Assembly (NCBI GenBank): GCA_040081675.1 | Contig: JBEBGB010000003.1 | Coordinates: 1 to 48,340, forward strand | Length of the DNA: 48,340 nucleotides | Origin: Vicinamibacterales bacterium | GTDB taxonomy: Bacteria > Acidobacteriota > Vicinamibacteria > Vicinamibacterales > CAVVIG01 | Direction of reading: 5' to 3' | Notes under the pieces: model-generated | What the model was told of the DNA's origin: nothing | Seen by the model: only the letters and a program-made list of their open reading frames with translations | Databases searched by the model: none | In this document: piece after piece, positions 24,033-41,059 of the stretch | How the letters are laid out: each line of letters opens with the position of its first letter | Numbering within the stretch: position 1 is the first letter of the stretch | Translations under genes and position numbers: made by a program

Positions 24033-25428
24033 GAGAGACCTCCACGGCGTGGGCATGCGCGTCGGCCACGAGCGACTCGAGATGTGCGATCTGGTCGGGT
24101 CGCACGCGGGTGATCGAACGCTGCGCGCGTTCCACGAGCAGTGCCGCCGCCTGAAACCATCGCAGTTCGCGATTCGGTGGATTCGGCCTGACCGCCTCAT
24201 ATCCGTTCCTCAGCGCTGCCACTAGTTGCACCTCGCGCTGCGGCGTCCACTCGCCAGTCAGTGCACGGGTTCGCAACAGGGCCAGCACACTCGCGATATC
24301 GGCGGCAGCCGGCCCGTACGAGGCCACATCGAAGTCGATGAAACCCACATCGTCTCTGGTGGCCTGTCGTGTAGCGTTCGCGAAACCGGGTTGGTCGAGG
24401 GCGACGAGCCAGTTACGGGCGTTCACGTCGCCGTGTACGCAGACGGGCTGCTGGTCAGAGGGTCGATGCGCCACGAGCAGATCCACGGTGCGTCGCACGA
24501 GATCGCCGAGATCCGGTCTCGCCCATGCGACGACCTCGCCCGCTCGCACCAGTTGGTCGTCGTCGAACGCTCCGAATCTGGGGAGCGTGAACGGCGAGGC
24601 GTCGGTCGGAAGGGCATGCAAACGCGCCAGAGAGGTTCCAAGCGCAGTGAAGGCACGAACGAGCCTCGCTTCCGGCACGGCATCGAGATGCTGGCCTGCC
24701 ACGGCGTCGACAATGAGCAGGTGGCGACGGTCGTCCCAGGCTCTCAGTCGAGGGACGCGCAGCGGCGAGTCGGCAGCAGTCAGCGCATGTTCGAGCCACA
24801 GCAGCGCACGCCGAGCCTGTTCGAGATCGTTGGCTGCGTAGAGCTTTGCGAAGCCCACGGCCTGCCCATCTGGTTGCGAGACTCGGGCGATGGCGGCTCG
24901 TTCGGGGTTGTAGCCGACTACCTCGATCGACAGCCTTCCCGGATACAGGTCTCTGATGAGCGGGAGCGGCGTCGAGAGCGCGTCGAGACCGGCCAGACAT
25001 CGGTCGTTCGGGAACGTCCAGAACACCGCTTTCAACTCCGCATCGAAACACACGCCGCGCAAGGGCGAGCACGGCCGTTCGGTCCGGCGTGCGTCCGCGA
25101 ACATCGCCTCCGCACCTGTCGCTCGCATGCGCGTCGACACGAGGTAGCTGACACCGTCAACCCAGACACGATGAACTGTTCTGACGCTCTCGCCGATGCG
25201 GTACTTCGCACGGAGCCGCTCCACACGCTGGACCTCGAGCCTCCCACGTTCGCCCAATCGCTCGGCGAACACCTGGGCCGCCCACTGGTCGTCGAGCAGA
25301 CGATCGCGCAGCGGAAGCTGCAGATCCTTCGGCAGGAGGGCGCTCGCGGGCTGGTCGGCGGACTTGCCAGATTCGTGCGGACGTCTGACGTCGAGCCCGA
25401 CGCCGAGGATGACGCCTTCAATGCTCAT
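24025..25428 (-). CDS. APH/choline-kinase-like phosphotransferase
   Basis: WTFPND, YNPERAA, FAKLY, VHGDVNARN, FIDFD, GPAAADIA; ATG 25428 in ATGA overlap. Confidence 0.85.
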   Translation of the reverse strand: MSIEGVILGVGLDVRRPHESGKSADQPASALLPKDLQLPLRDRLLDDQWAAQVFAERLGERGRLEVQRVERLRAKYRIGESVRTVHRVWVDGVSYLVSTRMRATGAEAMFADARRTERPCSPLRGVCFDAELKAVFWTFPNDRCLAGLDALSTPLPLIRDLYPGRLSIEVVGYNPERAAIARVSQPDGQAVGFAKLYAANDLEQARRALLWLEHALTAADSPLRVPRLRAWDDRRHLLIVDAVAGQHLDAVPEARLVRAFTALGTSLARLHALPTDASPFTLPRFGAFDDDQLVRAGEVVAWARPDLGDLVRRTVDLLVAHRPSDQQPVCVHGDVNARNWLVALDQPGFANATRQATRDDVGFIDFDVASYGPAAADIASVLALLRTRALTGEWTPQREVQLVAALRNGYEAVRPNPPNRELRWFQAAALLVERAQRSITRVRPDQIAHLESLVADAHAHAVEVSRG

Positions 25429-27440
25429 GACGAACTCCTCGCTGTGGTGAGGGCTCCGTCCTCGACCGACCAGGTTGCCCACGCACACCGGCTGTCGTTG
25501 CCCATTCGAGTACTGCGGCCGCCGGTCGTGAGCACCCCCTCGACGACGTCGAGTGCGGAGAACGCAACGAGACGACCGCCGGCGTCGACTCGCGTCCACG
25601 CCGCGAGGGCCGTGCCGGAGAAACCGGGCAGGTCGATGCCGTGGCACGCACCGGCCCACGACAGCGTGTCGATAAAAGCCTCGGACGGGCGAACGCGGTC
25701 CCCTCGACTCGCATCGCCTGTCTGGGGCGTGCGCACCTCGACGACCATGGGATCCTCGAAGCGCGCGCTGCCAGCCAACTGCCGAATGCGAAGTGCAGTG
25801 TCGAAGAGATCGCGTGGCGCGACCGCGGTCAACAGAACCGTCGATGTGGCCCGTGCCGACATCGCCACGACCGGCGCGCGGTGTTTCACGCCGTAGAGCG
25901 GAGCGAACCAGCCGTCCTCGATCCGCAGCGGGAACGCCGGTGTGAACGTGAGCGCGACACCGTCGGCGACGATCACGCCAGGGCGGTCCTGACAGACCGC
26001 AATGTGCTGGCCTGCCTCTGGAGCGAGGTGCCAGCGAAGCTCGTATGTGTGCTCGCGAGCGCCCTCGAGATAGTCCGCGACGAGCCAGTACTCGTTGCCG
26101 ACGAAGAGCACGGCGCGCGAGTGCACGGCCTCGTAGGCCGGGCTCGTGCACTGCCCTGCCACAAGGTCGAAGCGGGGTGCGCTGCCTCGAGCGAGCAGCT
26201 GTCCAGAGGCCACGAGTCCCCCCGGTTTGCGCCTTGCGTACGGCGTCTGGTCGAGTCCGTCGACCAGAACCGTGTTGTGCGCCGCTGTACTCTTGAACCA
26301 GCGTCGCCAGTTCGGCGGTGTTTCCGAGTAGGTGTATCGACCGGGGTCGATCAGCAGCGGCTTGCCGCCTGACGCGGCTTCCACGCTCAGCTGGTCGTAA
26401 TGGCCATGGCCGCCGTCACCGAGCGGTCCGCAGTCGAAGATCAGAAACCGCTCGTCCGCATAGGGACGATCGACGCCCCACCCGCTTCGCTGCGTGTAGT
26501 AGCCGCCTGCCGGGAAACTCGCACACTGACGTGACGGCGCCTGGCCGGCAGCACCTGACGTGGCGGCGTAGACCAGATCCGCGCGGTTCAGCAGTTGTCC
26601 CGCCAGCAGCAGCACGTCGGCGTAGCTCTCGCTGTCGGCGTCCGAGCATGCCGGAATCCGACCGTCCGGCCGGTGGCAATGCAGCGCGAAGTCGGCCGCC
26701 AGCGCGACGCGCTCGGTGAACGAGGCTGGAAGGGCGATGCCCGCCATCCGCGCGTTCTGCATGGCGCCGAGAAACGAGCGCAGGACGATGCAGTGATAGT
26801 GGGTCGAGCCCTCGCGGTGCACCCCGTCGGGCCGCACATCGGCAAGCAGATTCAGATGGAGCTGCTCGAACGCGAAGTCCCGCAGCGCGGCTCCTTCATC
26901 GAGATCGGGGAACGCCAGCGCCGCAACGAGCAGCGCGTACAGTTCCAGCGTTCGATGGTTGCGTTCCTTCGTCAGGTTGTCTCGAACCGAGAGCACCTCA
27001 TCCCACAGATACCCGACGACGCGGTGCGCTTCCTGCTCGGTGAGCGGGTCGCACCCGCCCTCATGCTCGAAGCGGTTCCAGGCGTAGATCCAGTTCTGGA
27101 TGCGGCGTGCCGCCACCTCGGTGTCATCCGCTCCAGCCGGCACCTGCGCCACGAAGCTGGTCACCAGCCGGCGCCAGGCGTCGCGGTACCGCACATCCTT
27201 CGTGTCGGCAAAGGCATGCGCCAGATCGAGACCGTAGTAGAACTTGACCCACTCGACCCGCCACTCCTTATCGTCGGGGAACGGATCGACCCGCCAGTCG
27301 GGCTCGGTGCCGAGCGGCAACGTGAGCCCGCCGATCGTGAAGTAGCCCGTCACCACGTCGTTCGCAACGGCGAGATCGCGGCACGCGCTGTCCAGCACGC
27401 TGAAGACCACGCGGGGCACACAGGCATGTGTCGAACTCAC
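25425..27440 (-). CDS. Heparinase II/III-like polysaccharide lyase family protein
   Basis: NH..LEL, DGVHREGSTHYH, RPDG.IP..SDAD, GHGHYDQLS, DPGRYTY, STAAHNTVLVDG; no evident signal peptide. Confidence 0.87.
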   Translation of the reverse strand: MSSTHACVPRVVFSVLDSACRDLAVANDVVTGYFTIGGLTLPLGTEPDWRVDPFPDDKEWRVEWVKFYYGLDLAHAFADTKDVRYRDAWRRLVTSFVAQVPAGADDTEVAARRIQNWIYAWNRFEHEGGCDPLTEQEAHRVVGYLWDEVLSVRDNLTKERNHRTLELYALLVAALAFPDLDEGAALRDFAFEQLHLNLLADVRPDGVHREGSTHYHCIVLRSFLGAMQNARMAGIALPASFTERVALAADFALHCHRPDGRIPACSDADSESYADVLLLAGQLLNRADLVYAATSGAAGQAPSRQCASFPAGGYYTQRSGWGVDRPYADERFLIFDCGPLGDGGHGHYDQLSVEAASGGKPLLIDPGRYTYSETPPNWRRWFKSTAAHNTVLVDGLDQTPYARRKPGGLVASGQLLARGSAPRFDLVAGQCTSPAYEAVHSRAVLFVGNEYWLVADYLEGAREHTYELRWHLAPEAGQHIAVCQDRPGVIVADGVALTFTPAFPLRIEDGWFAPLYGVKHRAPVVAMSARATSTVLLTAVAPRDLFDTALRIRQLAGSARFEDPMVVEVRTPQTGDASRGDRVRPSEAFIDTLSWAGACHGIDLPGFSGTALAAWTRVDAGGRLVAFSALDVVEGVLTTGGRSTRMGNDSRCAWATWSVEDGALTTARSSS

Positions 27441-29203
27441 CGGACGATCTCCAGCATGGGACGCGGACGAGCCTCCGCCCGCACCGTCCCGCCGGCGATG
27501 CGGTACACGACGTCAGCCCGCGACACCAGCGTCGACTCGTGCGTGATGGCGAGACAGGTCCTGCCCGCCCGCAGGCGTTCGAGCGCATCGAGGATGACCC
27601 GCGCCGACTCGGCATCGACGTTCGCGAGCGGTTCATCCAGCAGCAGAATCGGGCGGTCGAGCAGGAACGCGCGCGCCAGCGACAGCCGTTGACGCTGACC
27701 GCCGGACAGGTTGACGCCGTCCTCGCCGAGCGTCGTGTCGAGCCCAACCGGCAACGACGCCACGAACTCGTCGAGCGCCACGAAGCTGAGTGCGGTTCTG
27801 ATGCGGCGCTCGTCCACCGAGCCCGCGTCGGTCGTCAGCGCCTGCCGCAGTGTCCCCGAGAACAGATGCAGGTCCTGGGTCATCACGGCGAACTGCGATC
27901 GCAACGAGCGAATCGTGTACGCGTCAAGCGGCCGTCCGTCGAGGCGCACAGTACCCGTGGTCGGATCGAACAGCCGGAGGCAGAGGCTGATGAGCGTGCT
28001 CTTCCCAGCGCCGCTCATCCCCACGAGGACAGTAAGCGCGCCAGGCTCGATTCGCATGTTCACGCCGCGCAGTACGGGCGGCCGCTCCGCGCCGTCGGCC
28101 GGGTAGCTGAACCACGCGTCCTGCAGTTCGATGAGCCCCGCAGCCCGATCCAGATTCATCGCACCCGGAGCGTCCTCGACGAGAGGACGCTCGCCGAGAA
28201 AACGCATCAGTCGTTCCCCTGACACGAGCCCCTTCGACGCGGCCTCGGTGATCTCGTTCACCTTGTCGATCGGGCGGACCAGTTGCGCGACGTAGGCAGT
28301 CACCACCGTCAACTCGCCCACGGTCATCCAGCCGCGAATCACAAGCAGCGCCCCGCCGATCGTGGCGGCGGCCGTGACGATGGCGCGGGCTACACCGAAG
28401 CCGCGCTCGAGACCGGCAGCGGCCCGCGACGCCTGCACGCCCGCGCGCAACCCTTCAGCGCTCACTGTGGCGAAACGCTGCCGCGCGCCCTCTGTTGCGC
28501 CGAGCGCCTGGATGACGGGCAACCCGCGAACGATCTCCTGCGCGACGGCCGCCACCTCGCCCTCACGACGACGCTTCGTTCGGGACGCTGCGGCCACGCG
28601 ACGGCCGTGGAACCGCACCAGTGTCCACAGCAGCGGGATGAACACGAGGCACGAGAGCCCCATCCAGGGCGAGAGCCAGGCGATTCCCGCCGCGGTGAAG
28701 AGCAGAGTCCCGCTGAACTTCACGAGCAGCGGGACGGTCTTGGTCCAGAACCGCGTGAACTGATCGACGTCCCCGACGATGCGCATCACGAGCTCGCCGC
28801 TGCGATGGGTGGTGCGGATTGTGGGCGGCAGTGTCTGAAGATGCGCGAGCATGCGGTCGCGGATCGCGAAGGCGAGCCGCTCGCGGATGCGGGCAGCGAT
28901 AACGGCGTCGGCGGCCTCGGCGACGGCGCTTCCGAGGGCGATCACGAGGAACACGCCGCCCAGGACGAGTACGCCTTCCTGCAATCCCAGCGCTCTCATC
29001 CACGAGGGCCAGCTGCCCGCTGTCGGTCCGGCTATAAGTCGGTCGATGATCCACTTCAGTGGCCACGGAGCCAGCGCGTTGCCGGCGACCGCGGTCAAGG
29101 TGATCAGGTTCGCCTTGATGAATGCCCCGCGCAGGGCGAAGACATCGGGCCCGAACGTGCGAGCCAGCTGGCGGAGACGGCCGGGCGCGGGCGCGGAGGT
29201 CAT
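27437..29203 (-). CDS. ABC exporter, fused TMD-NBD (MsbA-like half transporter)
   Basis: Multiple TM helices, PWPLK, GMSGAGKST, LSGGQRQR, LLLDEP, ITH. Confidence 0.93.
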   Translation of the reverse strand: MTSAPAPGRLRQLARTFGPDVFALRGAFIKANLITLTAVAGNALAPWPLKWIIDRLIAGPTAGSWPSWMRALGLQEGVLVLGGVFLVIALGSAVAEAADAVIAARIRERLAFAIRDRMLAHLQTLPPTIRTTHRSGELVMRIVGDVDQFTRFWTKTVPLLVKFSGTLLFTAAGIAWLSPWMGLSCLVFIPLLWTLVRFHGRRVAAASRTKRRREGEVAAVAQEIVRGLPVIQALGATEGARQRFATVSAEGLRAGVQASRAAAGLERGFGVARAIVTAAATIGGALLVIRGWMTVGELTVVTAYVAQLVRPIDKVNEITEAASKGLVSGERLMRFLGERPLVEDAPGAMNLDRAAGLIELQDAWFSYPADGAERPPVLRGVNMRIEPGALTVLVGMSGAGKSTLISLCLRLFDPTTGTVRLDGRPLDAYTIRSLRSQFAVMTQDLHLFSGTLRQALTTDAGSVDERRIRTALSFVALDEFVASLPVGLDTTLGEDGVNLSGGQRQRLSLARAFLLDRPILLLDEPLANVDAESARVILDALERLRAGRTCLAITHESTLVSRADVVYRIAGGTVRAEARPRPMLEIVR

Positions 29204-30585
29204 CGAGCGGTCTCCAGGAAGAGCGCGGCCAGCCGATCGGCGAGCCGATCGCCGTCGAACTGTTCGCGCGCGGTGCGTCGGGCAGCATCAGCCATGTGCG
29301 CCATCAGCGTGCGTTCGTGGTAGGCGCGGGCGAGCGCGTGTGCGAGCGCCGGCGCGTTCTCGGCCGCCACAAGGAGACCGTTCGACTCGTGGCGCACGAC
29401 TTCCGGGATCCCTGACACGTCGGTGGTCACGACGGGCGTCCCGCACGCCATGGCTTCCATCAGCACGTTCGGAATGCCGTCGCGATCGCCGTCCGCGAGC
29501 ACTCGGCAGGGGAGGCAGAACACGTGCGCCCGGTGGTACTCGTCGAACAGGCGCGCCTGGTTCTGCGGGCCGACAATCGTGACGTGACCGCCGAGGTCGC
29601 GCGCGGCGATGAGGTCGCGGATGTCGTTCGCGTGGTCGCCGTCGTTGCCGATGATCACCACCTCGAAGGGAATGGCCTGGGCACGCAGCATGGCCGCCGC
29701 TTCAATGAGGATGTCGAACCCTTTCTTGCGGACCAGGCGGCCGACGCTCAGGATCCGGAACCGCTCGTGCGGCTTGTCCGAAGGAACCCGGCTGGCGAGC
29801 AGCTGGCTGAACTCGGCGTTCAATCCGTGATACAGGCAGTGCACCGTGGCCGTCGGCGCCACGTCGCGCAACATGCGCTGGTTCGTCCCCGTGCAGGTGA
29901 CGGCGAAGCGAGCCGCTTCGAGCTTGCGGCGCAGCACACCCTCCGCGTTCGACGAGTCGGCGTAGATGTCCTTGGCATGGCCCGTAAACGAGAACGACAG
30001 GCCTGTGATGGTCGATGCGAACCAGGCCACCGTCGTGGCGCCGTGCGCGTAGTGCGCGTGCAGATGACGGACGGTCGGTGTGGTTCGGAGTCGGTCGACG
30101 AGTTCCACGGCGTGCAGCAGCTCGCGGATGAAGGAGAGCCTGGCTCGACCCGTGGAACGCCACGGTCGATAGAGCTCCAGCGTCATGATCGTCAGCGCGC
30201 GGGCCAGGCCAATCGGATGGCGCAGGGCCACGCGAACGAGCGCACCGGAGAAGAGCGGCAGGTGCGAGCGCAGCCACGACCCCAGCGGTGTCGACGAGAT
30301 CGATGCGGTGGGCGCAAGGAACTCCGGCGTGGCTCGAATGAGATCCACGACCTTGTGGCGAGGCAAGAGGTCGCTCACCTCGGCTGGCTTGGTGGAGAAC
30401 AGCCGCAGCGGGATGCCGAGCGTTTCGAGCCGGTAGATCTCGCTGAGGATGAACGGCTCCGACGCCCGCGGGTACGCCTTGAGCACATAGGCCAGCCAAG
30501 GCCCTTCCGACGTCGGTCTCGGGCGAGCCGAGTGAGTCGACGTTCCCGCCTTTCCCGGCCCTGCTGGCTTTCCCGCGTCAGTCAT
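29200..30585 (-). CDS. GT4 glycosyltransferase (WcaL-like)
   Basis: YPRASEPFI, HLHAHYAH, FTGHAKDIY, VGRLVRKKG, GDRDGIPNVLMEAMA; ATG 30585. Confidence 0.92.
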   Translation of the reverse strand: MTDAGKPAGPGKAGTSTHSARPRPTSEGPWLAYVLKAYPRASEPFILSEIYRLETLGIPLRLFSTKPAEVSDLLPRHKVVDLIRATPEFLAPTASISSTPLGSWLRSHLPLFSGALVRVALRHPIGLARALTIMTLELYRPWRSTGRARLSFIRELLHAVELVDRLRTTPTVRHLHAHYAHGATTVAWFASTITGLSFSFTGHAKDIYADSSNAEGVLRRKLEAARFAVTCTGTNQRMLRDVAPTATVHCLYHGLNAEFSQLLASRVPSDKPHERFRILSVGRLVRKKGFDILIEAAAMLRAQAIPFEVVIIGNDGDHANDIRDLIAARDLGGHVTIVGPQNQARLFDEYHRAHVFCLPCRVLADGDRDGIPNVLMEAMACGTPVVTTDVSGIPEVVRHESNGLLVAAENAPALAHALARAYHERTLMAHMADAARRTAREQFDGDRLADRLAALFLETAR

Positions 30586-31675
30586 ACGCCGCCGCCAGTG
30601 TCTCGGTGAACCGGCGCGCGCAGACCGTGACGTCGTAGCGACGCTCGACGAGCTGGCGACCGCCTCGCGCGATCGCTCGCGCAAGGTCCGCACGCCCAGC
30701 AACGGTTTCGATGGCAGATGCCAGTGCTCGCGCATCGCCCGCGCGTACGAGCAGGCCTGTTTCGCCGTCGACGATCGCCGACTCGATGGCCCCGGCGCGG
30801 GTAGCCACCACCGGTCGTTCCGACGCCAGCGCTTCGAGGAGGACGTTGGGCAGCCCGTCTCTGTCGCCGGCTTCGTCGACAACCGATGGAACCGCCACGA
30901 GATGTGCGGCGGCGTAGAGCGCCGGCAGGTCGGCGTGGCTGGCACTGCCATGCCACGTGACGCGAGGGCCGATACCGAGCGAGTCCGCCATCGAGCGAAG
31001 CGAGGCGCCGTCGGGGCCGTCGCCCACGATGCACAGCGTCCACGGCACGCGGACCCTGGCAATCGCGTCGAGCAGGACGTTGAATCCCTTCTTGGGAACC
31101 AGTCGACCGACGGCGAGCACGCGCAGCTCACCGTCCGCAGGCAGAGGCGACGGTGCAAAACGCGTCAGGTTGACGCCGTGAGGAATCAGCGCTGGGGTGA
31201 CACCGAGTCTGGCGATCTCCACCTGCGCGTCCGCGTTGCAGACCACCACACACCGCGCGCCAGCCGCTCGACGACCGAGCTCTGGCCGCGGCACCGTTCG
31301 GGCATCCTTGGCATGCGCCGAGAAGCCGTAGGGCACGCCCAATCGTTCAGCGGCGCACGCGGCAACCGCCGCCGGGTGATGCGCGAAGTAGCCGTGAACC
31401 GCGCGCGGTCGGCGGGAGCCCAACTCTTCGACAATCTCACTCGCCTGGTCTTCAATTCTGCCGCTCTTCAGCACGCGAACGCGCGGCGACAGCCGGGCGG
31501 CATCTGGATGTGGCGCAAGGCCGTCGCCGGGCTTGGTGGCGAACGCTGCCATGAGCAGCCCTGCCTGCTCCAAGGCCGCCAGCTCGGGCAGCGCAAACGT
31601 TTCCGAGCGCCGGGGAAATCCGCTGAGGACCACGACAACTCCTGACTCGCGTGGGCTCCGCTGGTCAGTGGACAT
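30578..31675 (-). CDS. GT4 glycosyltransferase (WcaL-like)
   Basis: FPRRSETF, VHGYFAH, SAHAKD, VGRLVPKKG, GDRDGLPNVLLEALA. Confidence 0.92.
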   Translation of the reverse strand: MSTDQRSPRESGVVVVLSGFPRRSETFALPELAALEQAGLLMAAFATKPGDGLAPHPDAARLSPRVRVLKSGRIEDQASEIVEELGSRRPRAVHGYFAHHPAAVAACAAERLGVPYGFSAHAKDARTVPRPELGRRAAGARCVVVCNADAQVEIARLGVTPALIPHGVNLTRFAPSPLPADGELRVLAVGRLVPKKGFNVLLDAIARVRVPWTLCIVGDGPDGASLRSMADSLGIGPRVTWHGSASHADLPALYAAAHLVAVPSVVDEAGDRDGLPNVLLEALASERPVVATRAGAIESAIVDGETGLLVRAGDARALASAIETVAGRADLARAIARGGRQLVERRYDVTVCARRFTETLAAAYD

Positions 31676-32885
31676 GGACGCCGGCTCCCGTTGCGCGCGT
31701 CTTCGCCGCGATCGGACGCATCGTTGGTTGTTGATCCGGGCTCAGCAGGTTCGACACGAGCCGAGGCACCTGTTCGAGCGCGGTGAAGCGCAGCGTCGCG
31801 GGCCGCAGCGACGTCTTGACGGTCGCCATCCAGCGTGTGAGCGCCTGAGAAGAAAGGTCGCGCTGCGCGAGAACGTCGACGAGTCCGATTTCAGCGAAGC
31901 GGGTTGCTCGAATGGTCTGTTCACGCCGGGGAGCTTCGCGCGGCACGAGCAGCGCAGGTTTCCGATAGGCGAGGATCTCGCAGACACTGTTGTAGCCCGC
32001 CATACCGACCACGCGTGTCGCGCGCTCGACGAGCGAGGCGCCGTCGTCGGTGAAGTCGATCAGATGGAAGTCGTCTCGTGTCGCGGCAACGGCGCGCACG
32101 TGCTTCAATGCCGGCTCCGGGCAGAACGGCCCGGTCAGCAGCACGCCCGTCTCCCCGCCTGGAAAGGACGACTCCGAGAACGCGAGGGCCAGTTCCGTAC
32201 CGTCCTGACCTCCGCCCGCCAGGCACAGGGTGAAGGGACGCGCGAGCGCAGCACCCGTCGAAGCAGCGGCCTCGCTGTCGTGGGGCGACCGCCGATCGAG
32301 GTAGCCCACGAATCGCACGCGATGCCGGGTCGACTCGGGGAAGTGGCACTCTTCCGACAGGTCGTAGACCGACGGGTCGCCGTAGATCCAGACCTGGTCG
32401 TAGTACCGCTCGATGCTCGCGTGGTGGCCGGCGGCGGCCCACTCGCGCGCCACGACCGACGGCTCGTCGAGGATGTCGCGGAGGCCGAGCACGGTCTTGA
32501 TCCGTCGTCCCATGCGCAGAGCGGCCAGTGTGGGCTCCAGTTCGCCGAGTGCGCCGAGGGGGACGTTGTCGACAATCAGCAGGTGGGGGTCGAATCGCTC
32601 GAGCGCCGCGCGGATGGTCTGGGAGCGAAGGCCGACGATGTGATCCAACGGGCACGACAGGTGGCGGGCGCTGTACGCGCCAGTCATCTGGTGCTTGCCG
32701 AGTGCGGGCAGCGTGATGCAGTCGATGCCCGCAGGCATGTGGAATGCACCGCCCAAGTGCGTCCCCGAGATGAGCAGAATCGACACGTCGACGTGACGGT
32801 CGACGATCGCACGGGCCAGCGCGAGATTGCGCCGTACGTGGCCCAACCCCATCGTGTCATGCGAGTAGAAGGCGATTCTGTGCAC
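31665..32885 (-). CDS. GT-B glycosyltransferase, COG4671-like; first gene of glycan operon
   Basis: YSHDTMGLGHVRR, LGLRDILD, AGGGQDG, MAGYNSVCE, EQ.IRA; GTG 32885 preceded by AGGAGG (32890-32895). Confidence 0.9.
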   Translation of the reverse strand: MHRIAFYSHDTMGLGHVRRNLALARAIVDRHVDVSILLISGTHLGGAFHMPAGIDCITLPALGKHQMTGAYSARHLSCPLDHIVGLRSQTIRAALERFDPHLLIVDNVPLGALGELEPTLAALRMGRRIKTVLGLRDILDEPSVVAREWAAAGHHASIERYYDQVWIYGDPSVYDLSEECHFPESTRHRVRFVGYLDRRSPHDSEAAASTGAALARPFTLCLAGGGQDGTELALAFSESSFPGGETGVLLTGPFCPEPALKHVRAVAATRDDFHLIDFTDDGASLVERATRVVGMAGYNSVCEILAYRKPALLVPREAPRREQTIRATRFAEIGLVDVLAQRDLSSQALTRWMATVKTSLRPATLRFTALEQVPRLVSNLLSPDQQPTMRPIAAKTRATGAGVHVH

Positions 32886-32951
32886 GCGTCCTCCTGAAAC
32901 TGGCTGGTGTTGCGACCGCGCAACACCGGTGCGACGTCGGTGTATCGCGTC

Positions 32952-33004
32952 GCTGGTTCTAAAGGGCTCGCCGCGAGCGAGGAAATATAGGGAACCGCCG
33001 ATTT
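32952..33004 (-). promoter_or_regulatory. Candidate ECF-sigma promoter, copy 1 (glycan operon)
   Basis: AAAT-N9-CCTATATTTCC-N13-GCCCTTTAGAACCAGC; same blocks and spacing as 35236-35288. Confidence 0.75.
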
Positions 33005-33060
33005 CCGAAACGGGTCTACGCGCGATGCGGTTCGCACCCTGCTGGCGCACGCGACCACAA

Positions 33061-33114
33061 CAGAGTGCATGCTGGTACGACGCGCGTTGTCAGAGGCAGG
33101 TCAAGGGGATGTCA
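33061..33114 (-). promoter_or_regulatory. Three 11-bp-period TGACA direct repeats plus CACTCTG element
   Basis: Plus-strand TGTCA 33088, GGTCA 33099, TGTCA 33110; CAGAGTG at 33061-33067, 20 nt away; same layout as 38834-38898. Confidence 0.65.
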
Positions 33115-33120
33115 AAACAT

Positions 33121-33230
33121 GGGGCAGGGGGCAGGACGGCCGTACAGGTCCTACCCTTCAGAACGGCAGTTCGGCACGGAGAACTCTTTTCTTCCCGCCC
33201 AGCCCGCCGTTCCGGGCCGTCCCGCCCTGC
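33121..33230. repeat. Imperfect inverted repeat of G-rich units downstream of the S8 gene
   Basis: GGGCAGGACGGCC (about 33129-33141) versus GGCCGTCCCGCCC (33215-33227); related to the other intergenic 9-mer repeats. Confidence 0.5.
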
Positions 33231-33234
33231 TGTG

Positions 33235-34611
33235 CTATCGCCGCCTGGAACTGCTGTTGAGCGCTTTGGGAAGATCAACGCGCCCAGCGCCAAGACCGCT
33301 GACCGGCACGGCGTCCTGCGACAGGTCTGTGATGGCGTGGCTCAGCGACAGTTTCCTGAACACCTGTACTTGGAGCGCCACGGCACCCGACAAGAGCGCC
33401 GTGCTGAACGATGTGCCCGACACTGCAGCGTAGAAGCCACCTGGAAAACTGGTAACAACCGCCTCGCCTGGCGTGCCGAGACGGACGGGCGACACACCGT
33501 AGTTCGAGAACACGCTCAGAGTGTCGAGCGTGGTGGTCGAGCCGGCGCCGATTGCATGCGAATCGCCCGCCGGGAAGCGCACGAGGGTCTGCCCGTCGTT
33601 GCCGGCAGCGGCCACCGGAATCGCGTTGAACTTCTGCGCGTAGTTCAACGCTCGAGCGAGCTCGTTCGATTTCTCCGGCATGCTGAAACTCATGTTGATG
33701 ACGCGCGCCCCGTGGTCCACGGCGTAGTAGACCGCCTGCACGATGTCCGATAGCTGTGAGGTGCCGTCCGCACGGAAGGCCTTCAGCGGCATGATGCGGG
33801 CGGTTGGCGCGACGTAGTGCACGAGCCCGGCCACCATGGTCCCGTGTCCAAAGGCCGGCGGCAATGACTCCAGAATGGCGCCGACCGACTGATTCAGCAG
33901 CGCCGAGGTGGAGGTGTTGACCTGCTGGATTCGCAGCTGTTCCAGCACCGCGCCGACCGACTGCTCGAGGACGGCACCGACGGACTGATCGAGGTCGGCG
34001 ATGTCCGACACGGTGCCGGGCAGATTGCGCGTGAAGTCGTATCCGGGAACGACCAGACCCTGCAGCAACGGATGGTTGGCGTCGACGCCCGTGTCGATAA
34101 TCGCCACGACCGAGTTACCGGTTGCCATGGCTTGTGCGGCTGGCAGACGCAGGATTCGTCCGGCAGCCTGAGCGGCGTAGCTCCGTGGGACGGTCCTCCC
34201 GAAGTAGCTCACGGGTGTGTTGGTGCTGAATGCCTCCAGCACAGCGCCGACCGACTGGTTCAGGAGAGGACTCGGCGTACGCTCTGCGACATCGACGCGT
34301 TTGTCGCGCTCGAAGTTCTCGACATCCAGGTCGGCTTCCACTTCCAGCTCGATCTCGACATTGGTCTTGCTCGCTGGTACTGCCACCAGCACGATCGGCG
34401 CCTCAGCGTCGTTGCGGAGTACCTCGACGACGATGAGGCTGTGTCTGGTCAGCACGGTCTCGAGGAGACCGTCTGCGGCTCGCAGCATGTACCGCCGGGC
34501 CTCCTGGGCCTGACCCGACGCCGCGCTGAGAAGTCCCAGCAGGCACGCCACAGTCAGCCGAATGACGCGAAGACCGGCGATGTGTCTGGTGTGTCGCATG
34601 TACATGCTCAC
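33235..34611 (-). CDS. Secreted S8 (subtilisin-like) serine protease with four QSVGA(V/I)LE repeats
   Basis: Signal peptide ending GQA, I9-like prodomain, triad IIDTG / GHGT / SGTSFS, oxyanion AAAGN. Confidence 0.92.
   Translation of the reverse strand: MSMYMRHTRHIAGLRVIRLTVACLLGLLSAASGQAQEARRYMLRAADGLLETVLTRHSLIVVEVLRNDAEAPIVLVAVPASKTNVEIELEVEADLDVENFERDKRVDVAERTPSPLLNQSVGAVLEAFSTNTPVSYFGRTVPRSYAAQAAGRILRLPAAQAMATGNSVVAIIDTGVDANHPLLQGLVVPGYDFTRNLPGTVSDIADLDQSVGAVLEQSVGAVLEQLRIQQVNTSTSALLNQSVGAILESLPPAFGHGTMVAGLVHYVAPTARIMPLKAFRADGTSQLSDIVQAVYYAVDHGARVINMSFSMPEKSNELARALNYAQKFNAIPVAAAGNDGQTLVRFPAGDSHAIGAGSTTTLDTLSVFSNYGVSPVRLGTPGEAVVTSFPGGFYAAVSGTSFSTALLSGAVALQVQVFRKLSLSHAITDLSQDAVPVSGLGAGRVDLPKALNSSSRRR
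33868..34257 (-). repeat. Intragenic peptide repeat QSVGA(V/I)LE x4
   Basis: Copies at 34234-34257, 33964-33987, 33940-33963, 33868-33891; differences mostly synonymous. Confidence 0.95.
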
Positions 34612-35234
34612 TCGGGGCGAGGTTCGCTCAAAGGAAGCCTGATGCTCCGGCGGTGGTCCTCGACCGGGATGTGGAGCTCGAGCCCCTCGTTGGGTTCGTA
34701 CTCCATCTGGAACTCACCGAACTCGTTGCTCAGGCCTCTGGCAACGACGCGACGTCCGCGTGTGACGAGGATCGGCACGTGAGCCGGCGGCGGATCGGGG
34801 ACACGACGGTTCGACACCTGACCGACGAGTGACACGCGAGGCGCGCCCGACAGCTGCTCGAACTTCAGGTGGATCGTGAAGTCGCCAGCCTCGTACAGCG
34901 TCTGACGGTTCATCTCCTCGACAGGACCGCGGACACCCTCCGCGGCCGGCATGCCGACGCTGCCGAACACCAGGCGAGCGGCCAGCGCAGGAAGTGACAG
35001 CGTTCGCTCGGGCCGATGCAGTGAAAAGGCCGCCAGGGCAAACCGGACCAGGTGAACGGGTGGTTCGACGGCGGTATCCTGCCTGGCCGCAGCCGCAACC
35101 GCATCCAGGCGCCGAATCAGTGCGTCGCAGGAGAGGCAGCCGTCCGCCAGATGCGTGCGCATGCCAGCTTCGAGCTCCGGCGCAGCCACTCCGCGGACGA
35201 AGTCGACCCAATGAACGATGTCGAAATGGCTCAT
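34608..35234 (-). CDS. Putative soluble Zn-finger anti-sigma factor with C-terminal beta-rich domain
   Basis: N-terminal HLADGCLSC (ZAS-like Hx4CxxC), no TM helix, linker LVFGS...EGVRG, C-terminal SNEFGEFQM; ATG 35234 overlaps CHAT stop. Confidence 0.7.
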   Translation of the reverse strand: MSHFDIVHWVDFVRGVAAPELEAGMRTHLADGCLSCDALIRRLDAVAAAARQDTAVEPPVHLVRFALAAFSLHRPERTLSLPALAARLVFGSVGMPAAEGVRGPVEEMNRQTLYEAGDFTIHLKFEQLSGAPRVSLVGQVSNRRVPDPPPAHVPILVTRGRRVVARGLSNEFGEFQMEYEPNEGLELHIPVEDHRRSIRLPLSEPRPE

Positions 35235-38185
35235 TGCTGGTTGTATAGGGCCCGAGTTCGGCCCGGAAATATAGGCATCGCAGTATTTTTTCGCCGCCCG
35301 CGGGGCGTTGGTGCCTTCGTCGGCAGAGCGGCAGCCCGGCCGGTGGCCTGACCGACAAGCGTAAATGGTGCCCAGTGATAGGGATGCGGGAATCGAGCGC
35401 GCAGGGAGCGCATCGCCGTCTGCACGGCCACGCCCGTTGGCTGACCCTGGGCGAGGTTGGCGTAGAAGGCGGCCATGAACTCTGCGGTGCTCAAGTCGTC
35501 CACCTGCCACATCGTCAGCAGGAGTGAGCGTGCGCCCGCGTAGAGGAACCCGCGCATCAACCCGACCAATTCGTCGCCGCCCATGACCGCGCTCAGGCCG
35601 GTACCGCAGCCGCTGAGCGTGACCAGATCGGCATCGAGCGTCAGACCGTAGGTGTCAGCGAGTGAGAGATCCCCATCGGCCAGTCGAATGGACGACAGCA
35701 TCGGATTGTCCCGCCGGAAGTACCCGTGGGTTGCGATGTGCACGTAGCGCGACACCGCACCGAGCTCACGCAGACACGCCCGGGTCGCCATCGTCCCGGT
35801 GCGGAGGGTTGGCGCCGGAAGGCACTGCGCCACCTGCGTCGCCTCGTCGCCGATATGCGGGGCGAAGCCATCCGCAAGCGCGAGTACCAGGCTGTCGTGG
35901 TGAGGCGACGGCGGCCTGATCTGGCACAAACGGAACACGCTGGCGCTCGGCGCGTACGAGATGGCGTACGCGTCGATCAACGCGCCACCTGCGTCCTCCA
36001 GCGCGTGAAACGGCAGATAGTGCAGCACTCCGTGCGGCACGACCACCAGGTGCTCTGCACGCAACAAGGGGCGAACTGGCGCAACGAGCTGATCGTAGAG
36101 CTCGCGCAGATGTCGTCGTGTGGCCGCCGACAGGACTGACGCGAAGGTTCGCACGTAGTCTGGCCCGAGCTGGAATTTCGCCAGCTGGAATCGGAGCAGT
36201 TGGAGGGTTCGCGTCACCTGCGTGGTGGTGGCCGCCAGTGGTGACACGCGAACCAGGTCGGGGCCGACCACGCACGCGTAGATCTGGTCGCGTGCGACGA
36301 AGAACTCGAGGAGCATCGTGTCTGGCGGCAGCGCATCCTGGATGTCGGCAAGGCTCGCCGATGTTCCGGTGTGCAGCGATGCCAGGCCTCCGTCGGATTC
36401 GCCAAGGCGGCTCAGCGCCGCCGAAAGCTGCCGCTCGCGGCCGTCGGCCGCTGCCCTCATCTGCCGCAGGCGCTCGTCGTCGAGCGAGGACTGCATCACG
36501 GCCTGCGCCATTCGACGCTGGCACGCGTGCAGCTGCTGCCTGAGCGGGCCGACCAGATCGGGCGTGTGCGTGCCAGCAGCGCGTGGCGTCAGCTCCGAGG
36601 CGCGGAACGCCAGCAACTCGACCAGGCCGCGCGATTTCGCGTCCTCGATGAGACGGAATGTCTCGGCTTCTCTACGCGAGCTGTCATGGCGACCGATAGC
36701 CAGACGAATCAGCCCCTCGTAGACAGCCAGCTTGTCGCCGAGGAATGGCGCCTTCAGATCCTCGGCCGCAATCTGTGCACGCAGCCGCTCGAGCGCCTGC
36801 CTGGCTCGGGTCAACGAGGCTTCGGCCGCGCTCGTGTCGCCGCGCGCCTCGGCCACTTCCCCGCACACGAGGTCCACCTGCCAGGCGAGTGACGATACTC
36901 GAACCTGGGCCAGCGCGGCCTCGGCGGCTCGGGCGCCGCGCGCCGCCTCTCGCAGGTCGCCTCGTCGAAGGGCGATCCGGGTTCGCAACACCTGCCATCG
37001 CACGCGAGTCGAGGGGGACATCGGTCGACGTTCCGCGCCTGCCATCAGTCGACGCGCTTGAGCATCGCGTCCCAGCTGAGAGCAGACGATGGCCCGACCG
37101 AGGTCCACGGTTGCGAGCCAGGGCTGGTTGCGGTCGGCCTGATAGAGCGCCCGCGCTCGAGCGAAGGTCGCCAGCGCCGCCACACCGTCGCCGTGTCTGG
37201 CCAGGGCGGTGGCCAGAAAGACGAGTGACTTCGCCCGCTCGTACCGCAGGCCCAAGGCGGTGAATCCTCTGGCCGCCGCTTCGGCGAGACGACGTGCCCC
37301 AGGTAGATCGTTCAACTCGAGGCAGACCTCGGCTTCGTCCATGTCGCACAACGCGCGGTGATATCGATCGCCGAGTTCCTCGCTCCGGGCACGCGCCACG
37401 GCGTAGGCCGTCAGCGCCTGTGTGTATCGACCGCACAGGAAATGCAGGTAGGCAATGTTGTAGTCGGCGGCCGCCACCAGCATCGTGAGCGCATGTGTCT
37501 CGCTGAACATGCGAACCTTGGCGTACGCCTCGAGCGCGTCGTCGAAGGCATTGAGACTGGTCAAGCACACGGCGATGTTGCGCATCGCCTCGGCCGCGTC
37601 CTGGTGCTGATCGTGGGCTCGAAGTGCCGACTCGGCGCGCCGGTAGCAGGCGAGCGCCTGCTTGAATCGATCCTGCCTGAAATGAAGGTTGCCGACGTTG
37701 CTCTCGAGACGCGCGAGGCGGAGGTCGTCGTCTCGTCGACGAAAGATCGCGCGCGCGCGCCTCGCCCAGCGTTCGGCCTTGTCGTAGCGCCCCAGGTGCA
37801 CCAGCGTGTGAATGGCGCCACTGTAGGTGATGGCCTTCTGCAGTCGGTCGCCCTCAGCGTCGAACTGGGCGATCGCGTCGGTGTAGCGGGCGAGCGCCAG
37901 ACGAAAGCGAGAGCCGAGGGCGAGGCCGTGCCCCTCGGCCCGAAGTGCACGACCTCGGGCAAGCCGATCGCGCGAACGGTCCGCGAGCAAGCGCGCTGTT
38001 CCGGCCAGGCGCTGCCCGCGCCCCAAATCGATCCGCGACTGCCTCGGCACGTCGTCGGCGAGCGCGATCGCCCATTGTGCGGCGTCACGTGTGTGAACGG
38101 TGCGAGCCCACGCTGTCGCCGCGGCCGCGTTCGCCCGCGACAGCCGATCGAGCAGCCGTCGCGACGGCATCGCCGCAACCGCCAT
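35231..38185 (-). CDS. TPR-CHAT caspase-like cysteine protease
   Basis: Long TPR array; EDAKSRGL, VVPHGVLHYLPFHAL, YAPSAS, catalytic HIATHG and LSGCGTG, WQVDD, HPYHWAPF. Confidence 0.93.
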   Translation of the reverse strand: MAVAAMPSRRLLDRLSRANAAAATAWARTVHTRDAAQWAIALADDVPRQSRIDLGRGQRLAGTARLLADRSRDRLARGRALRAEGHGLALGSRFRLALARYTDAIAQFDAEGDRLQKAITYSGAIHTLVHLGRYDKAERWARRARAIFRRRDDDLRLARLESNVGNLHFRQDRFKQALACYRRAESALRAHDQHQDAAEAMRNIAVCLTSLNAFDDALEAYAKVRMFSETHALTMLVAAADYNIAYLHFLCGRYTQALTAYAVARARSEELGDRYHRALCDMDEAEVCLELNDLPGARRLAEAAARGFTALGLRYERAKSLVFLATALARHGDGVAALATFARARALYQADRNQPWLATVDLGRAIVCSQLGRDAQARRLMAGAERRPMSPSTRVRWQVLRTRIALRRGDLREAARGARAAEAALAQVRVSSLAWQVDLVCGEVAEARGDTSAAEASLTRARQALERLRAQIAAEDLKAPFLGDKLAVYEGLIRLAIGRHDSSRREAETFRLIEDAKSRGLVELLAFRASELTPRAAGTHTPDLVGPLRQQLHACQRRMAQAVMQSSLDDERLRQMRAAADGRERQLSAALSRLGESDGGLASLHTGTSASLADIQDALPPDTMLLEFFVARDQIYACVVGPDLVRVSPLAATTTQVTRTLQLLRFQLAKFQLGPDYVRTFASVLSAATRRHLRELYDQLVAPVRPLLRAEHLVVVPHGVLHYLPFHALEDAGGALIDAYAISYAPSASVFRLCQIRPPSPHHDSLVLALADGFAPHIGDEATQVAQCLPAPTLRTGTMATRACLRELGAVSRYVHIATHGYFRRDNPMLSSIRLADGDLSLADTYGLTLDADLVTLSGCGTGLSAVMGGDELVGLMRGFLYAGARSLLLTMWQVDDLSTAEFMAAFYANLAQGQPTGVAVQTAMRSLRARFPHPYHWAPFTLVGQATGRAAALPTKAPTPRGRRKNTAMPIFPGRTRALYNQQ
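35236..35288 (-). promoter_or_regulatory. Candidate ECF-sigma promoter, copy 2 (anti-sigma/S8), inside the CHAT 3' end
   Basis: AAAT-N9-CCTATATTTCC-N13-GCCCTATACAACCAGC followed by A-ATG of the anti-sigma gene. Confidence 0.75.
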
Positions 38186-38829
38186 CAGATCCCTCGCGCT
38201 TTCAGCGCCGATTCGAGCTTCTTGAGACAGCGACCGCGAATGAATCCGATTGAGCCGACGGCCAGGCCGAGGCGGGCGGCAACTTCGGTGTAGGGCACCG
38301 GTTCCTCGGTGAAGAACAACATCCGTACGAGCTCCTGACAGCGTCCGGGCAGGTCAGCGACAGCATCATGGACTGACTGGTCGCGCTGCGCCTCCTCGAT
38401 GATCCGGGCGGCGTTCGGGTCGTCATCGACAACGGCGTCCCCGACGGATTCAGCTCCGACCCACCCAACCTCGCGCTTCGCACGCTGCTTCGCCTTGAGC
38501 GACTTGTGCTGCGCCACGCTCACGAGCCAACCCTTGAGCGCTTCCGGTTTGCGCAGCTTTGGCAGTTCGGTGACGAGCTCGACGCAGACCGCCTGGAAGA
38601 TGTCGCCCGCGCCGTCGTGCGTGGCACCGTACTTCAGGGGAATGGAATAGATCAGGCGTTTGTACCGGTTGACGATGAGAGCCCACGCCGCTTCGTCGCC
38701 TTGGAGGCACCGGCGCACGAGCACCGCATCGGGCACCTCGGCCGGCGACGCCTCCGCGCGCAGCGGCGCCACCGGCTCGGTGGTGGCCATCGGCGGCCCG
38801 GTTCGGCGCATCTGCTCACTGGGCATCAC
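38185..38829 (-). CDS. ECF RNA polymerase sigma-70 factor
   Basis: Region 2 LVRRC..GDEAAW..IV.RY..LIY, DIFQ, LKGWL; region 4 LPGRCQELV, YTEVAARLG..VGSIGFIRGRCL; TGATG overlap with CHAT; start could be ATG 38826 or 38790. Confidence 0.93.
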   Translation of the reverse strand: MMPSEQMRRTGPPMATTEPVAPLRAEASPAEVPDAVLVRRCLQGDEAAWALIVNRYKRLIYSIPLKYGATHDGAGDIFQAVCVELVTELPKLRKPEALKGWLVSVAQHKSLKAKQRAKREVGWVGAESVGDAVVDDDPNAARIIEEAQRDQSVHDAVADLPGRCQELVRMLFFTEEPVPYTEVAARLGLAVGSIGFIRGRCLKKLESALKARGI

Positions 38830-38833
38830 TCCA

Positions 38834-38898
38834 CAGCGTGGCGAAGCGCAGAGCGCGGCGTGTCAAGCGAATGTCAGGAAGATGTCAAGAAAGTGTCA
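38834..38898 (-). promoter_or_regulatory. Four 11-bp-period TGACA direct repeats plus CACGCTG element upstream of ECF sigma
   Basis: Plus-strand TGTCA at 38861, 38872, 38883, 38894; CAGCGTG at 38834-38840, 20 nt away. Confidence 0.75.
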
Positions 38899-38960
38899 AA
38901 AAGGCGGCGACACTCTCTCGACCATTCATCGCGAATCTGAACGAACGCTCGGCCTGCGCA

Positions 38961-39626
38961 TCAAGATCGCCGATTTTCGAGGCGGCATCCATTACTCGCA
39001 GCATCGCGTTCGCGACGTCGACGGGATTTTCGCTGCTGTCGCAACACGAGCAATCCAAGTCCTGCGCCAACAAGCGCCGCACCCGCAAGAATCCCGACAG
39101 CTGCATACGTGACTGGTCCCGGTGGCGGCGACACGCTGCGCCGTGCGGCGTCGGTGGCAGCCCTTCGTCGTGCCAATTCCAGATTCAGGCTCTCCTCACC
39201 TTGCCGCATCGCCCAAAGATGGTTCGCCTCGAGCAGCGGTCGCATGAGCGGCGCAAGCGCCTGGAGCAGCGGCTTCTCCGCACGAATTCGCCAGTCGAAC
39301 TGGGCGTTCACAAACTCGTCGTCTTGCGTGATCGTCCACACTCCGCGTCCAACGAAGTCTCCGAACGCCTGGATGGCAAACCCGTCGGGATAGCGGCTCT
39401 CGGTGACCACGAAGTCCCAGAGCAGCGTGTAGGGCAACCATCCTTTGGTGCGCAGGCGCACGCGTTGGTTGAGTCCGCGCTCGTCTGGCGGCGTCACCTC
39501 CTCGACCGACAGATACACCGCCGGCCACCACCGCGAGAGGTCCAGTGGATCGCGCAGCACATCGGCTACTTCGCCGTTCGTGCCGCGGACTCTCCACGAC
39601 GTGATGAAGTGATAGTCGTTCGACAT
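38961..39626 (-). CDS. SRPBCC/polyketide-cyclase-like protein with C-terminal membrane anchor
   Basis: YHFITSWRV, RWWP.VY, GWLPYTL, GDFVGRGVW, ANH.WAMRQGE; C-terminal hydrophobic helix. Confidence 0.82.
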   Translation of the reverse strand: MSNDYHFITSWRVRGTNGEVADVLRDPLDLSRWWPAVYLSVEEVTPPDERGLNQRVRLRTKGWLPYTLLWDFVVTESRYPDGFAIQAFGDFVGRGVWTITQDDEFVNAQFDWRIRAEKPLLQALAPLMRPLLEANHLWAMRQGEESLNLELARRRAATDAARRSVSPPPGPVTYAAVGILAGAALVGAGLGLLVLRQQRKSRRRRERDAASNGCRLENRRS

Positions 39627-41044: not shown

Positions 41045-41059
41045 GTAGAATCCTTCATT

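Follow-up and report, generated by a model that had tools for sequence, protein, structure and literature searches.

Paired 11-bp box arrays and a conserved bipartite promoter motif at an ECF sigma, TPR-CHAT and S8 protease module of a Vicinamibacterales bacterium

We analyzed a 48,340-nucleotide stretch of DNA from a Vicinamibacterales bacterium (Acidobacteriota; GenBank assembly GCA_040081675.1, contig JBEBGB010000003.1, positions 1 to 48,340), hereafter called the window. It carries two arrays of TTGACA-type boxes that repeat at exactly 11 bp, one directly ahead of the gene for a sigma factor of the extracytoplasmic function (ECF) type and the other directly ahead of a predicted glycan operon. 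The sigma gene belongs to a module that also encodes a TPR-CHAT protease-like protein, an anti-sigma-like protein (HYP), and an S8 subtilase. Between the second array and the glycan operon lies a strong match to a bipartite motif that is conserved at related modules. Tentatively, and with a chance that we would put slightly below even, we read the arrays as operators of one activator at weak promoters, so that the glycan operon would have another input in addition to the ECF sigma factor.

Two box arrays with an 11-bp period

Array 1 (38861..38899, minus strand) consists of the boxes TTGACA, TTGACA, cTGACA, and TTGACA at an 11-bp period. Its four TGACA words are located at 38898, 38887, 38876, and 38865, and 34 nt separate the end of its last box from the ATG at 38826, one of two candidate start codons of the sigma gene. 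Array 2 (33088..33115, minus strand) reads TTGACA, TTGACC, and cTGACA at the same exact period, 203 nt upstream of the start codon of the first glycan-operon gene, which encodes a GT28-like glycosyltransferase. On the plus strand, it appears as TGTCA (33088-33092), GGTCA (33099-33103), and TGTCA (33110-33114). An earlier note on this DNA had placed boxes at 33088, 33099, and 33110 in one orientation and had described a matching array ahead of the ECF gene. The sequence agrees with it on both counts, with an exact 11-bp period at the first site and four boxes (38899-38861), beyond chance, at the second. Both arrays read on the coding strand and fall in the two intergenic gaps of the cluster that are of appreciable size.

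The arrays are far beyond chance expectation. Runs of three or more TGAC boxes, sought in the window at periods from 7 to 15, were found at period 11 only, and the two runs recovered there were exactly arrays 1 and 2; any such run appeared in 6 of 300 first-order Markov simulations of the window (mean 0.02). In an array search of the window, array 2 was returned with no mismatches and array 1 as two overlapping matches with one mismatch each. We also compared the window with related loci, which were found by contig search with an alignment of 27 TPR-CHAT homologues. At least 586 relatives were confirmed, and 80 loci were kept for analysis (L001-L080; 39-52% identity), nearly all of them from Acidobacteriota according to their record titles. 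Across the window and these loci (1.65 Mb, both strands), TTGACA triples with at least 15 of 18 matching positions at period 11 occurred three times, all within the two arrays, and the same search at periods 9, 10, 12, and 13 gave 1, 0, 0, and 0 matches. A blind search for any 5-mer present three times at period 11 returned five places, which comprised two true tandem repeats, two G+C-rich coincidences, and array 1.

The composition of the boxes points to constraint. Across the seven box units, the TGAC core is invariant, the following base is A in six, and the preceding base is T in five. Four boxes are perfect TTGACA, and the other three differ from it by one base. Read on the plus strand, six of the seven show TGTCA followed by a purine-rich spacer. 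The spacers between boxes differ, yet stay pyrimidine-rich on the coding strand, and the two intergenic gaps have no similarity beyond the boxes. Because the TGAC core is invariant among differing spacers and nothing else is shared, the pattern suggests constraint on the boxes themselves rather than recent duplication. A mobile element or a duplicated segment was ruled out as the source, as the gaps are alike in their boxes only. The bins that contain the arrays have the strongest strand asymmetry in a 6.6-kb profile (plus-strand GC skew of +0.42 and +0.33, AT skew of +0.36 and +0.41), and RNA from the coding strand would be rich in C and U and poor in G there.

Array 1 is accompanied by an imperfect inverted copy of its boxes 1 and 2, GGTCGAGAGAGTGTC, 15 nt long at 38909..38923 (minus strand), which matches 12 of 14 bases by eye and lies 9-11 nt upstream. 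The copy could pair with boxes 1 and 2, or it could represent two boxes in the opposite orientation. The fold of the boxes with the copy was not significant (z = −1.72), and array 2 has no counterpart of this copy.

A conserved bipartite promoter motif

Two promoters had been proposed ahead of the glycan operon, a distal one at the array and a proximal one of the ECF type. To judge from the sequence comparisons, the proximal promoter is supported and the distal one is plausible. The support comes from the gap between the CHAT stop codon and the HYP start codon, which in most relatives contains a sharply conserved bipartite motif, CCTATATTTTT-N13-ACCCTTAT. It is laid out as a T-tract, cCCTATATTTTTt, 12-13 nt, and ACCCTTATg. 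With a loose pattern applied to the CHAT-gene strand of the relatives, 55 of 66 motif instances had one spacing in common.

We built a motif matrix from the relatives only, and matches in the window are independent of it. The best match in the window, at 25.0 bits, is CCCTATATTTCC-N14-CCCTTTAGA (32958..32992, minus strand), which has the common spacing and stands before the glycan operon. A second copy at 16.7 bits (35242..35276, minus strand) lies some 8 nt upstream of the start codon of HYP, in agreement with the position of the CHAT-HYP gap motif of the relatives, and the third-best score in the window is 2.2 bits. The 35242-35276 copy falls within a C-terminal tail of the CHAT gene that is not conserved: the TPR-CHAT frame runs about 38 codons (35231-35347, minus strand) past the end of its homologues, which is at about residue 946 of 984, and crosses the promoter motif. 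This 38-residue tail is probably not conserved protein.

Among the 75 loci that have the HYP N-terminus, 62 carry the motif within 400 nt upstream of HYP, a proportion that is high partly by construction, as the matrix came from the same loci. The matches that fall elsewhere are more informative about its use. The 80 loci (1.6 Mb) contain 84 matches above 12 bits, 20 of which are not upstream of HYP. The motif precedes genes with a GT28-C domain in L031 and L045 (by Pfam) and in L002 (by tblastn), and in L070 it directly follows the S8 stop codon, ahead of a distant homologue of the GT28-like protein of the window (23% over 325 residues, E = 3e-7). Each of the three loci positive for GT28 by tblastn carries the motif ahead of that operon. 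Other targets are an oligopeptide ATP-binding cassette (ABC) transporter ATPase (L002), receiver-only response regulators (L059 and L040), and an inositol monophosphatase (L012).

To judge by where these off-site matches fall, the motif appears to be a specialized promoter type linked to the sigma module rather than one of general use; its regulon appears to include glycan operons recurrently. Its co-occurrence with the module suggests that the ECF sigma factor of the module reads it, and a start of the glycan operon is predicted near 32950. The relative-derived motif, with its 25.0-bit match at 32992-32958 and its presence before GT28-like genes elsewhere, thereby supports the proximal ECF-type promoter of the earlier note. 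A literature search found no published description of the motif; the supplement of the ECF group survey (PMC7826278) is represented in that search in part.

Two further features of the motif regions were observed in the relatives. By eye, L031 (about 3060-3075) and L045 (about 16665-16680) contain a second, inverted CTATATTT half-motif, which faces a divergent YdjC-like gene (identified by Pfam in L045) and scores below 12 bits with the matrix; this suggests a bidirectional promoter pair ahead of the GT28-like operon in these loci. A conserved structured leader lies between the motif and HYP in L006, L016, L018, L023, L030, L035, L043, L047, L051, L053, L065, L068, L069, L074, and L076. It has two hairpins, the first of which is invariant and the second of which combines an invariant loop, ACCCGGAAG, with a variable stem. 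Compensatory changes were present in 7 of its 17 predicted pairs (14 sequences). The leader had no Rfam match and is absent from the window.

Candidate operators and alternative explanations

The core-promoter signals at the arrays are less clear than the boxes. The word CACTCTG (33061..33067, minus strand) lies 20 nt past the last box of array 2, and CACGCTG (38834..38840, minus strand) lies 20 nt past the last box of array 1. CACTCT, which has A as its second and T as its sixth base, is a candidate weak −10 element. A start roughly 7 nt beyond CACGCTG would coincide with the GTG or ATG of the ECF gene, and a leaderless or near-leaderless mRNA is predicted. The offset of exactly 20 nt, which the earlier note had pointed out, is therefore present at both sites, but the shared word resembles a −10 poorly, and the fact that it recurs has weak statistical significance.

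We propose the following mechanism. In each array, the TTGACA-type boxes lie one helical turn (11 bp) apart on a single face of the DNA and point to the downstream gene, a layout that would suit a protein binding head to tail and cooperatively. The likeliest class would be a winged-helix response regulator of the OmpR/PhoB type, encoded elsewhere in the genome. Since the last box of both arrays would occupy the −35 position, 20 nt upstream of the poor −10-like CAC(T/G)CT, the bound regulator may recruit RNA polymerase by class II-type activation. With CAC(T/G)CT as a minimal −10, the center of the last two boxes would fall near −41, the position of class II activators; the predicted starts would be near 38828 (ECF-TPR-CHAT operon) and near 33055 (glycan operon). 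We infer a single factor on both arrays, its protein class, activation rather than repression, and these start sites, and the protein class is the least secure step.

The second input to the glycan operon would be the bipartite promoter of the module at 32992-32958, presumably read by the ECF sigma factor. A regulator X would then act on both the ECF operon and the glycan operon, and the ECF sigma factor would act on the glycan operon and on the genes for the anti-sigma-like protein and S8. The result would be a feed-forward loop with built-in negative feedback. Like known loops in which a transcription factor is paired with an alternative sigma factor, this one would have a single set of sites before the sigma and target operons and a sigma-type promoter at the target; here, the likeness is one of cis elements only. 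The feed-forward architecture suggested in the earlier note can thus be recognized at the level of motifs, with box arrays before the sigma operon and its target and a sigma-type promoter at the target, and it would be “coherent” if both arms act with the same sign.

The closest known operators are PHO boxes, which are described as direct repeats with an 11-bp period, in E. coli as two repeats with CTGTCAT and in Bacillus subtilis as four boxes resembling TT(A/T/C)ACA (PMC11870197). PhoB sites in E. coli identified by chromatin immunoprecipitation include TGTCATAAAACTGTCATA (PMC10294691). The arrays resemble PHO boxes and OmpR/PhoB operators in being direct repeats with an exact 11-bp period, in three and four copies. 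The TGTCA word of E. coli PhoB sites is present on the plus strand in six of the seven boxes, and the arrays would overlap the −35 zone of a promoter without a good core, as PHO boxes do. In contrast to the E. coli CTGTCAT, however, the arrays retain neither the flanking C nor the flanking T, and unlike PHO boxes, the arrays are 20 nt from the −10-like word. Proteins of other folds also bind 11-bp tandem repeats, e.g. plasmid ParR on the iterons of parC.

Several observations weigh against the activator proposal. Concerning the regulator class, TTGACA has G at the position where the B. subtilis consensus TT(A/T/C)ACA allows A, T, or C, and the usual pho boxes of E. coli face their promoters in the opposite way, whereas the boxes here read TGACA on the coding strand. 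Besides the sigma factor, the scanned frames of the window contain no gene for a DNA-binding regulator, and likewise none for a response regulator with a DNA-binding domain. Concerning the core promoter, a consensus scan found no canonical −10 and no sigma-70-type promoter at the arrays, and the 20-nt gap exceeds the spacing of an ordinary −35/−10 pair. The recurrence of CAC(T/G)CTG reaches a P of about 0.02-0.06: among random pairs of 45-mers from the window, 5.7% of trials matched at 6 of 7 positions in register and 1.8% at 8 of 10. CACKCTG is also a common word in the window (34 copies, 23 expected).

Conservation adds to this side. None of the 80 loci has a TGAC or TTGACA array at its module; the single TGAC triple among them is inside the CHAT gene of L059. 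In L070, the S8 stop codon and the ECF-type motif after it are so close together that there is no room for an array. In addition, the ECF gene in most relatives directly follows a same-strand opp/dpp-like ABC operon gene, which encodes a family-5 solute-binding protein. Because of this absence, the lack of room in L070, and the abutting upstream gene in most relatives, the arrays appear to be lineage-specific or recent among the relatives compared. The conservation in relatives that the earlier note had named as a check was not seen (0 of 80 loci); this comparison covers the loci at 39-52% identity, as the relatives at 54-64% identity (P0002-P0013) are known as proteins only.

Other promoter readings of the arrays were rejected. 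A sigma-54 promoter was rejected by eye, with no GG/GC pair at proper spacing, as was a MerR-type promoter with a long spacer, with no dyad common to the 20-nt spacers. The arrays are not promoters of the ECF type, as the cognate motif of the module differs. The promoter given for ECF41, TGTCACA-N16-CGTC, has a −35 word that contains TGTCA (PMC3426412). An ECF41 reading fails on strand, copy number, and −10: unlike in ECF41, TGTCA is on the non-coding strand here, is repeated three to four times, and has no CGTC at 16 nt.

The region between the S8 gene and array 2 bears on whether the glycan operon needs its own promoter. The earlier note had preferred a separate promoter zone to plain read-through from S8. 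The stop codon of S8 and the GT28-like start codon are 350 nt apart, and a long G+C-rich hairpin (33125..33230, minus strand; −67.5 kcal/mol, z = −3.64, with none of 200 shuffles equally stable) lies between the stop codon and array 2. This strong hairpin favors a separate zone, but it has no adjacent U-tract, so that read-through may still occur; a UGUUUU run begins 6 nt past the stem, and a simple terminator scan made no call there. The predicted fold is a possible non-canonical terminator or insulator.

Such a fold would also suit a different role for the arrays, in which they bind a protein as a repressor site, roadblock, or insulator after the upstream operon (S8 at array 2, the SRPBCC-like frame at array 1) and limit read-through, with the ECF-type motif as the only promoter of the glycan operon. 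Neither array has a usable −10 downstream, array 2 is preceded by the strong hairpin at the S8 end, and array 1 sits 63 nt past the upstream stop codon with its first boxes able to pair with the inverted copy. Relatives, moreover, have the ECF-type promoter alone before their GT28-like genes. However, no other promoter can be recognized for the ECF operon in the window between the stop codon upstream and the start codon of the operon, and the identical 20-nt offset to CAC(T/G)CTG suggests, if weakly, a fixed core-promoter geometry. We consider this role unlikely.

A simpler idea dispenses with a regulator: the boxes would be −35 hexamers in a stack, read by the housekeeping sigma factor, whose consensus is TTGACA, and would catch polymerase at several registers. 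That four of the seven boxes are perfect TTGACA, that the rest are one base off, and that both arrays face downstream genes would all be expected. Yet none of the boxes has a −10 at a distance of 16-18 nt, a −35 element has no need of exact 11-bp phasing in three to four copies, and no such stacking occurs ahead of other genes in the window or the 80 loci, all of which makes the idea improbable. It is just as improbable that the arrays are functionless, as decayed 11-bp tandem duplications or products of chance. Their absence from all 80 loci would fit, and true 11-bp tandem repeats do occur in these genomes (L062 and L005), but decay or chance would have to account for two separate arrays with the same invariant core amid unrelated spacers and flanks, for a pattern expected 0.02 times per window, and for one shared orientation at two regulatory gaps of one cluster.

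The strand asymmetry, the strongest of the 6.6-kb profile, with its C/U-rich coding-strand RNA, raises the thought that the element acts as RNA, with a pyrimidine-rich 3′ tail of UUGACA repeats ending the upstream transcripts as a site for Rho loading or protein binding. Both arrays do come after a stop codon and a hairpin. Rho sites, however, require no exact word and no 11-nt period, and sequence-specific contact with DNA better explains the invariant TGAC core. There was no match to an Rfam family beyond one sub-threshold match to a microRNA family (E = 0.62), which we took as chance, and we hold an RNA role to be very improbable. Least credible of all, and scarcely to be expected, is that the boxes work in the PhoB orientation (TGTCA, plus strand) and drive antisense transcripts into the 3′ ends of S8 and the SRPBCC-like frame: the plus-strand TGTCA with its purine/A-rich spacer does resemble E. 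coli PhoB sites and, by eye, GACACT lies 10 nt past the last plus-strand box of array 1, but array 2 has no comparable plus-strand −10, and no plus-strand gene follows either array, as the frames at 33065 and 38838 are without family matches and contain the arrays.

The sigma module, its neighbors, and its significance

The window has a G+C content of 65%. Reading frames and family scans outline a minus-strand gene train from 41 kb to 25 kb, in the order pyruvate kinase, SRPBCC-like frame, ECF sigma factor, TPR-CHAT, HYP, S8, GT28-C, two GT4 glycosyltransferases, ABC exporter, and heparinase II/III-like. The SRPBCC-like frame (38961-39626, minus strand) is a weak match. The ECF gene (38185..38829, minus strand) matches Sigma70_r2/r4 and TIGR02937 (64 bits), starts at GTG 38829 or ATG 38826, and encodes 214 amino acids without a C-terminal extension of the ECF41 type. 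It is followed by the TPR-CHAT gene (35231..38185, minus strand; CHAT E = 1.9e-59), the product of which matches the Csx29 model weakly (E = 1.1e-10; 41 bits, below the cut-off of 300).

HYP (34608..35234, minus strand) encodes 208 residues, with H-x3/4-C-x2-C at the N-terminus and a C-terminus that resembles a beta-sandwich, and its start codon overlaps the CHAT stop codon. It has no match in Pfam or NCBIfam. In an alignment of 28 family members, H3, H28, C33, and C36 are invariant, which constitutes the H-x3/4-C-x2-C zinc-finger pattern found in anti-sigma factors. A profile of the family gave weak matches in the PDB to RsiW (5wuq_C, E = 0.0034), 3hug_B (E = 0.028), and DdvA (8rlz_A, E = 0.5), and the C-terminus gave a weak match only, to the beta-sandwich-containing chain 4v4c_B (E = 0.0033). 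Based on the zinc-finger pattern and the weak matches to anti-sigma chains, HYP is probably a soluble zinc-finger anti-sigma factor; an ECF-type promoter ahead of HYP and S8 would therefore yield negative feedback.

The S8 subtilase gene (33235..34611, minus strand) was assigned by family match. The glycan operon opens with the GT28-C-domain glycosyltransferase (31665..32885, minus strand), which has a GTG start with GGAGGA ahead of it, and family scans place the two GT4 genes, the ABC exporter, and the heparinase II/III-like gene at 25425..31675 (minus strand). A tight hairpin, GGUGUUGCG-cgg-UCGCAACACC (32897-32920, minus strand), lies in the predicted GT28-like leader just before the ribosome-binding site; the fold of the whole leader is not significant (z = −1.66). 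Another GT28-C-domain glycosyltransferase gene is located 10 kb farther along the train (21489-22688, minus strand), with no ECF-type motif ahead of it. At the other end, two frames overlap on opposite strands: 40445-41707 (plus strand), with residues 243-417 matching an O-methyltransferase, and 39632-41647 (minus strand), which matches pyruvate kinase from residue 202. These two genes are probably divergent, with true starts near 41.05-41.15 kb.

The module is common among the relatives. Full-length homologues of the TPR-CHAT protein are numerous; the named ones among them are acidobacterial, and the best non-self matches, at 63-64% identity, come from metagenomes only. ECF, HYP, and S8 flank CHAT on the CHAT strand in 70 of the 80 loci. 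The window differs upstream of the ECF gene, with pyruvate kinase and the SRPBCC-like frame in place of the opp/dpp-like operon. Because the ECF gene abuts the solute-binding-protein gene in most relatives, what lies upstream of array 1 is peculiar to the window.

In the parts of the sources covered, the closest described context for this module is ECF54. Members of that group are described with subtilase, CHAT plus TPR, and carboxypeptidase-regulatory-like neighbors and without a classical membrane anti-sigma factor (PMC8999054; PMC7826278 supplement). The group is given as 100% actinobacterial, with the motif GTATCAG/CTCC (PMC7826278 supplement; PMC8999054). Our module likewise places an ECF sigma factor, with no classical membrane anti-sigma factor, beside a subtilase and a TPR-CHAT protein and has an unusual, group-specific promoter motif. 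As for the carboxypeptidase-regulatory-like neighbor, the third protein here, HYP, shows the weak beta-sandwich match at its C-terminus and no Pfam match. Unlike ECF54 as described there, it is acidobacterial, its motif is CCTATATTTTT-N13-ACCCTTAT, its anti-sigma-like gene is of the zinc-finger type, and its gene order is ECF, CHAT, anti-sigma-like, S8.

A second comparison is with type III-E CRISPR systems, in which the TPR-CHAT protease Csx29, Csx30, and CASP-sigma work together and cleavage of the inhibitor is reported to free an ECF-like sigma factor (PMC10028731). By analogy, a TPR-CHAT gene here stands beside an ECF sigma factor and a candidate inhibitor. In contrast to type III-E, CRISPR genes are absent here, the candidate inhibitor is a small protein resembling zinc-binding anti-sigma (ZAS) factors, a second protease, S8, is present, and the arrangement is known from genes alone.

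A more specific version of the activator proposal would place a two-component regulator of the PhoB/PhoP kind, responding to phosphate or another envelope signal, above the protease-gated ECF module, with both converging on the GT28/GT4/ABC-exporter operon. We regard this version as decidedly unlikely; the scanned frames of the 48-kb window contain no pho, pst, two-component, or phosphate genes. If it were true, remodeling of surface glycans would need both a nutritional and a proteolytic signal, and the system would be an acidobacterial counterpart to the PhoP-driven switching of cell-wall polymers, carried out through a sigma module with an undescribed promoter and regulon.

Acidobacteriota are abundant in soil, and to our knowledge almost nothing is known of transcription control in this phylum. 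If the arrays are real operators, they would offer a compact test case in which a conventional regulator and a protease-gated ECF sigma factor share control of a surface-glycan operon. Of wider use than the arrays may be the conserved promoter of the module, together with its glycan regulon. Together, the promoter motif, the recurrent GT28-type glycan targets, and the structured leader provide handles on this module in hundreds of acidobacterial genomes (at least 586 relatives).

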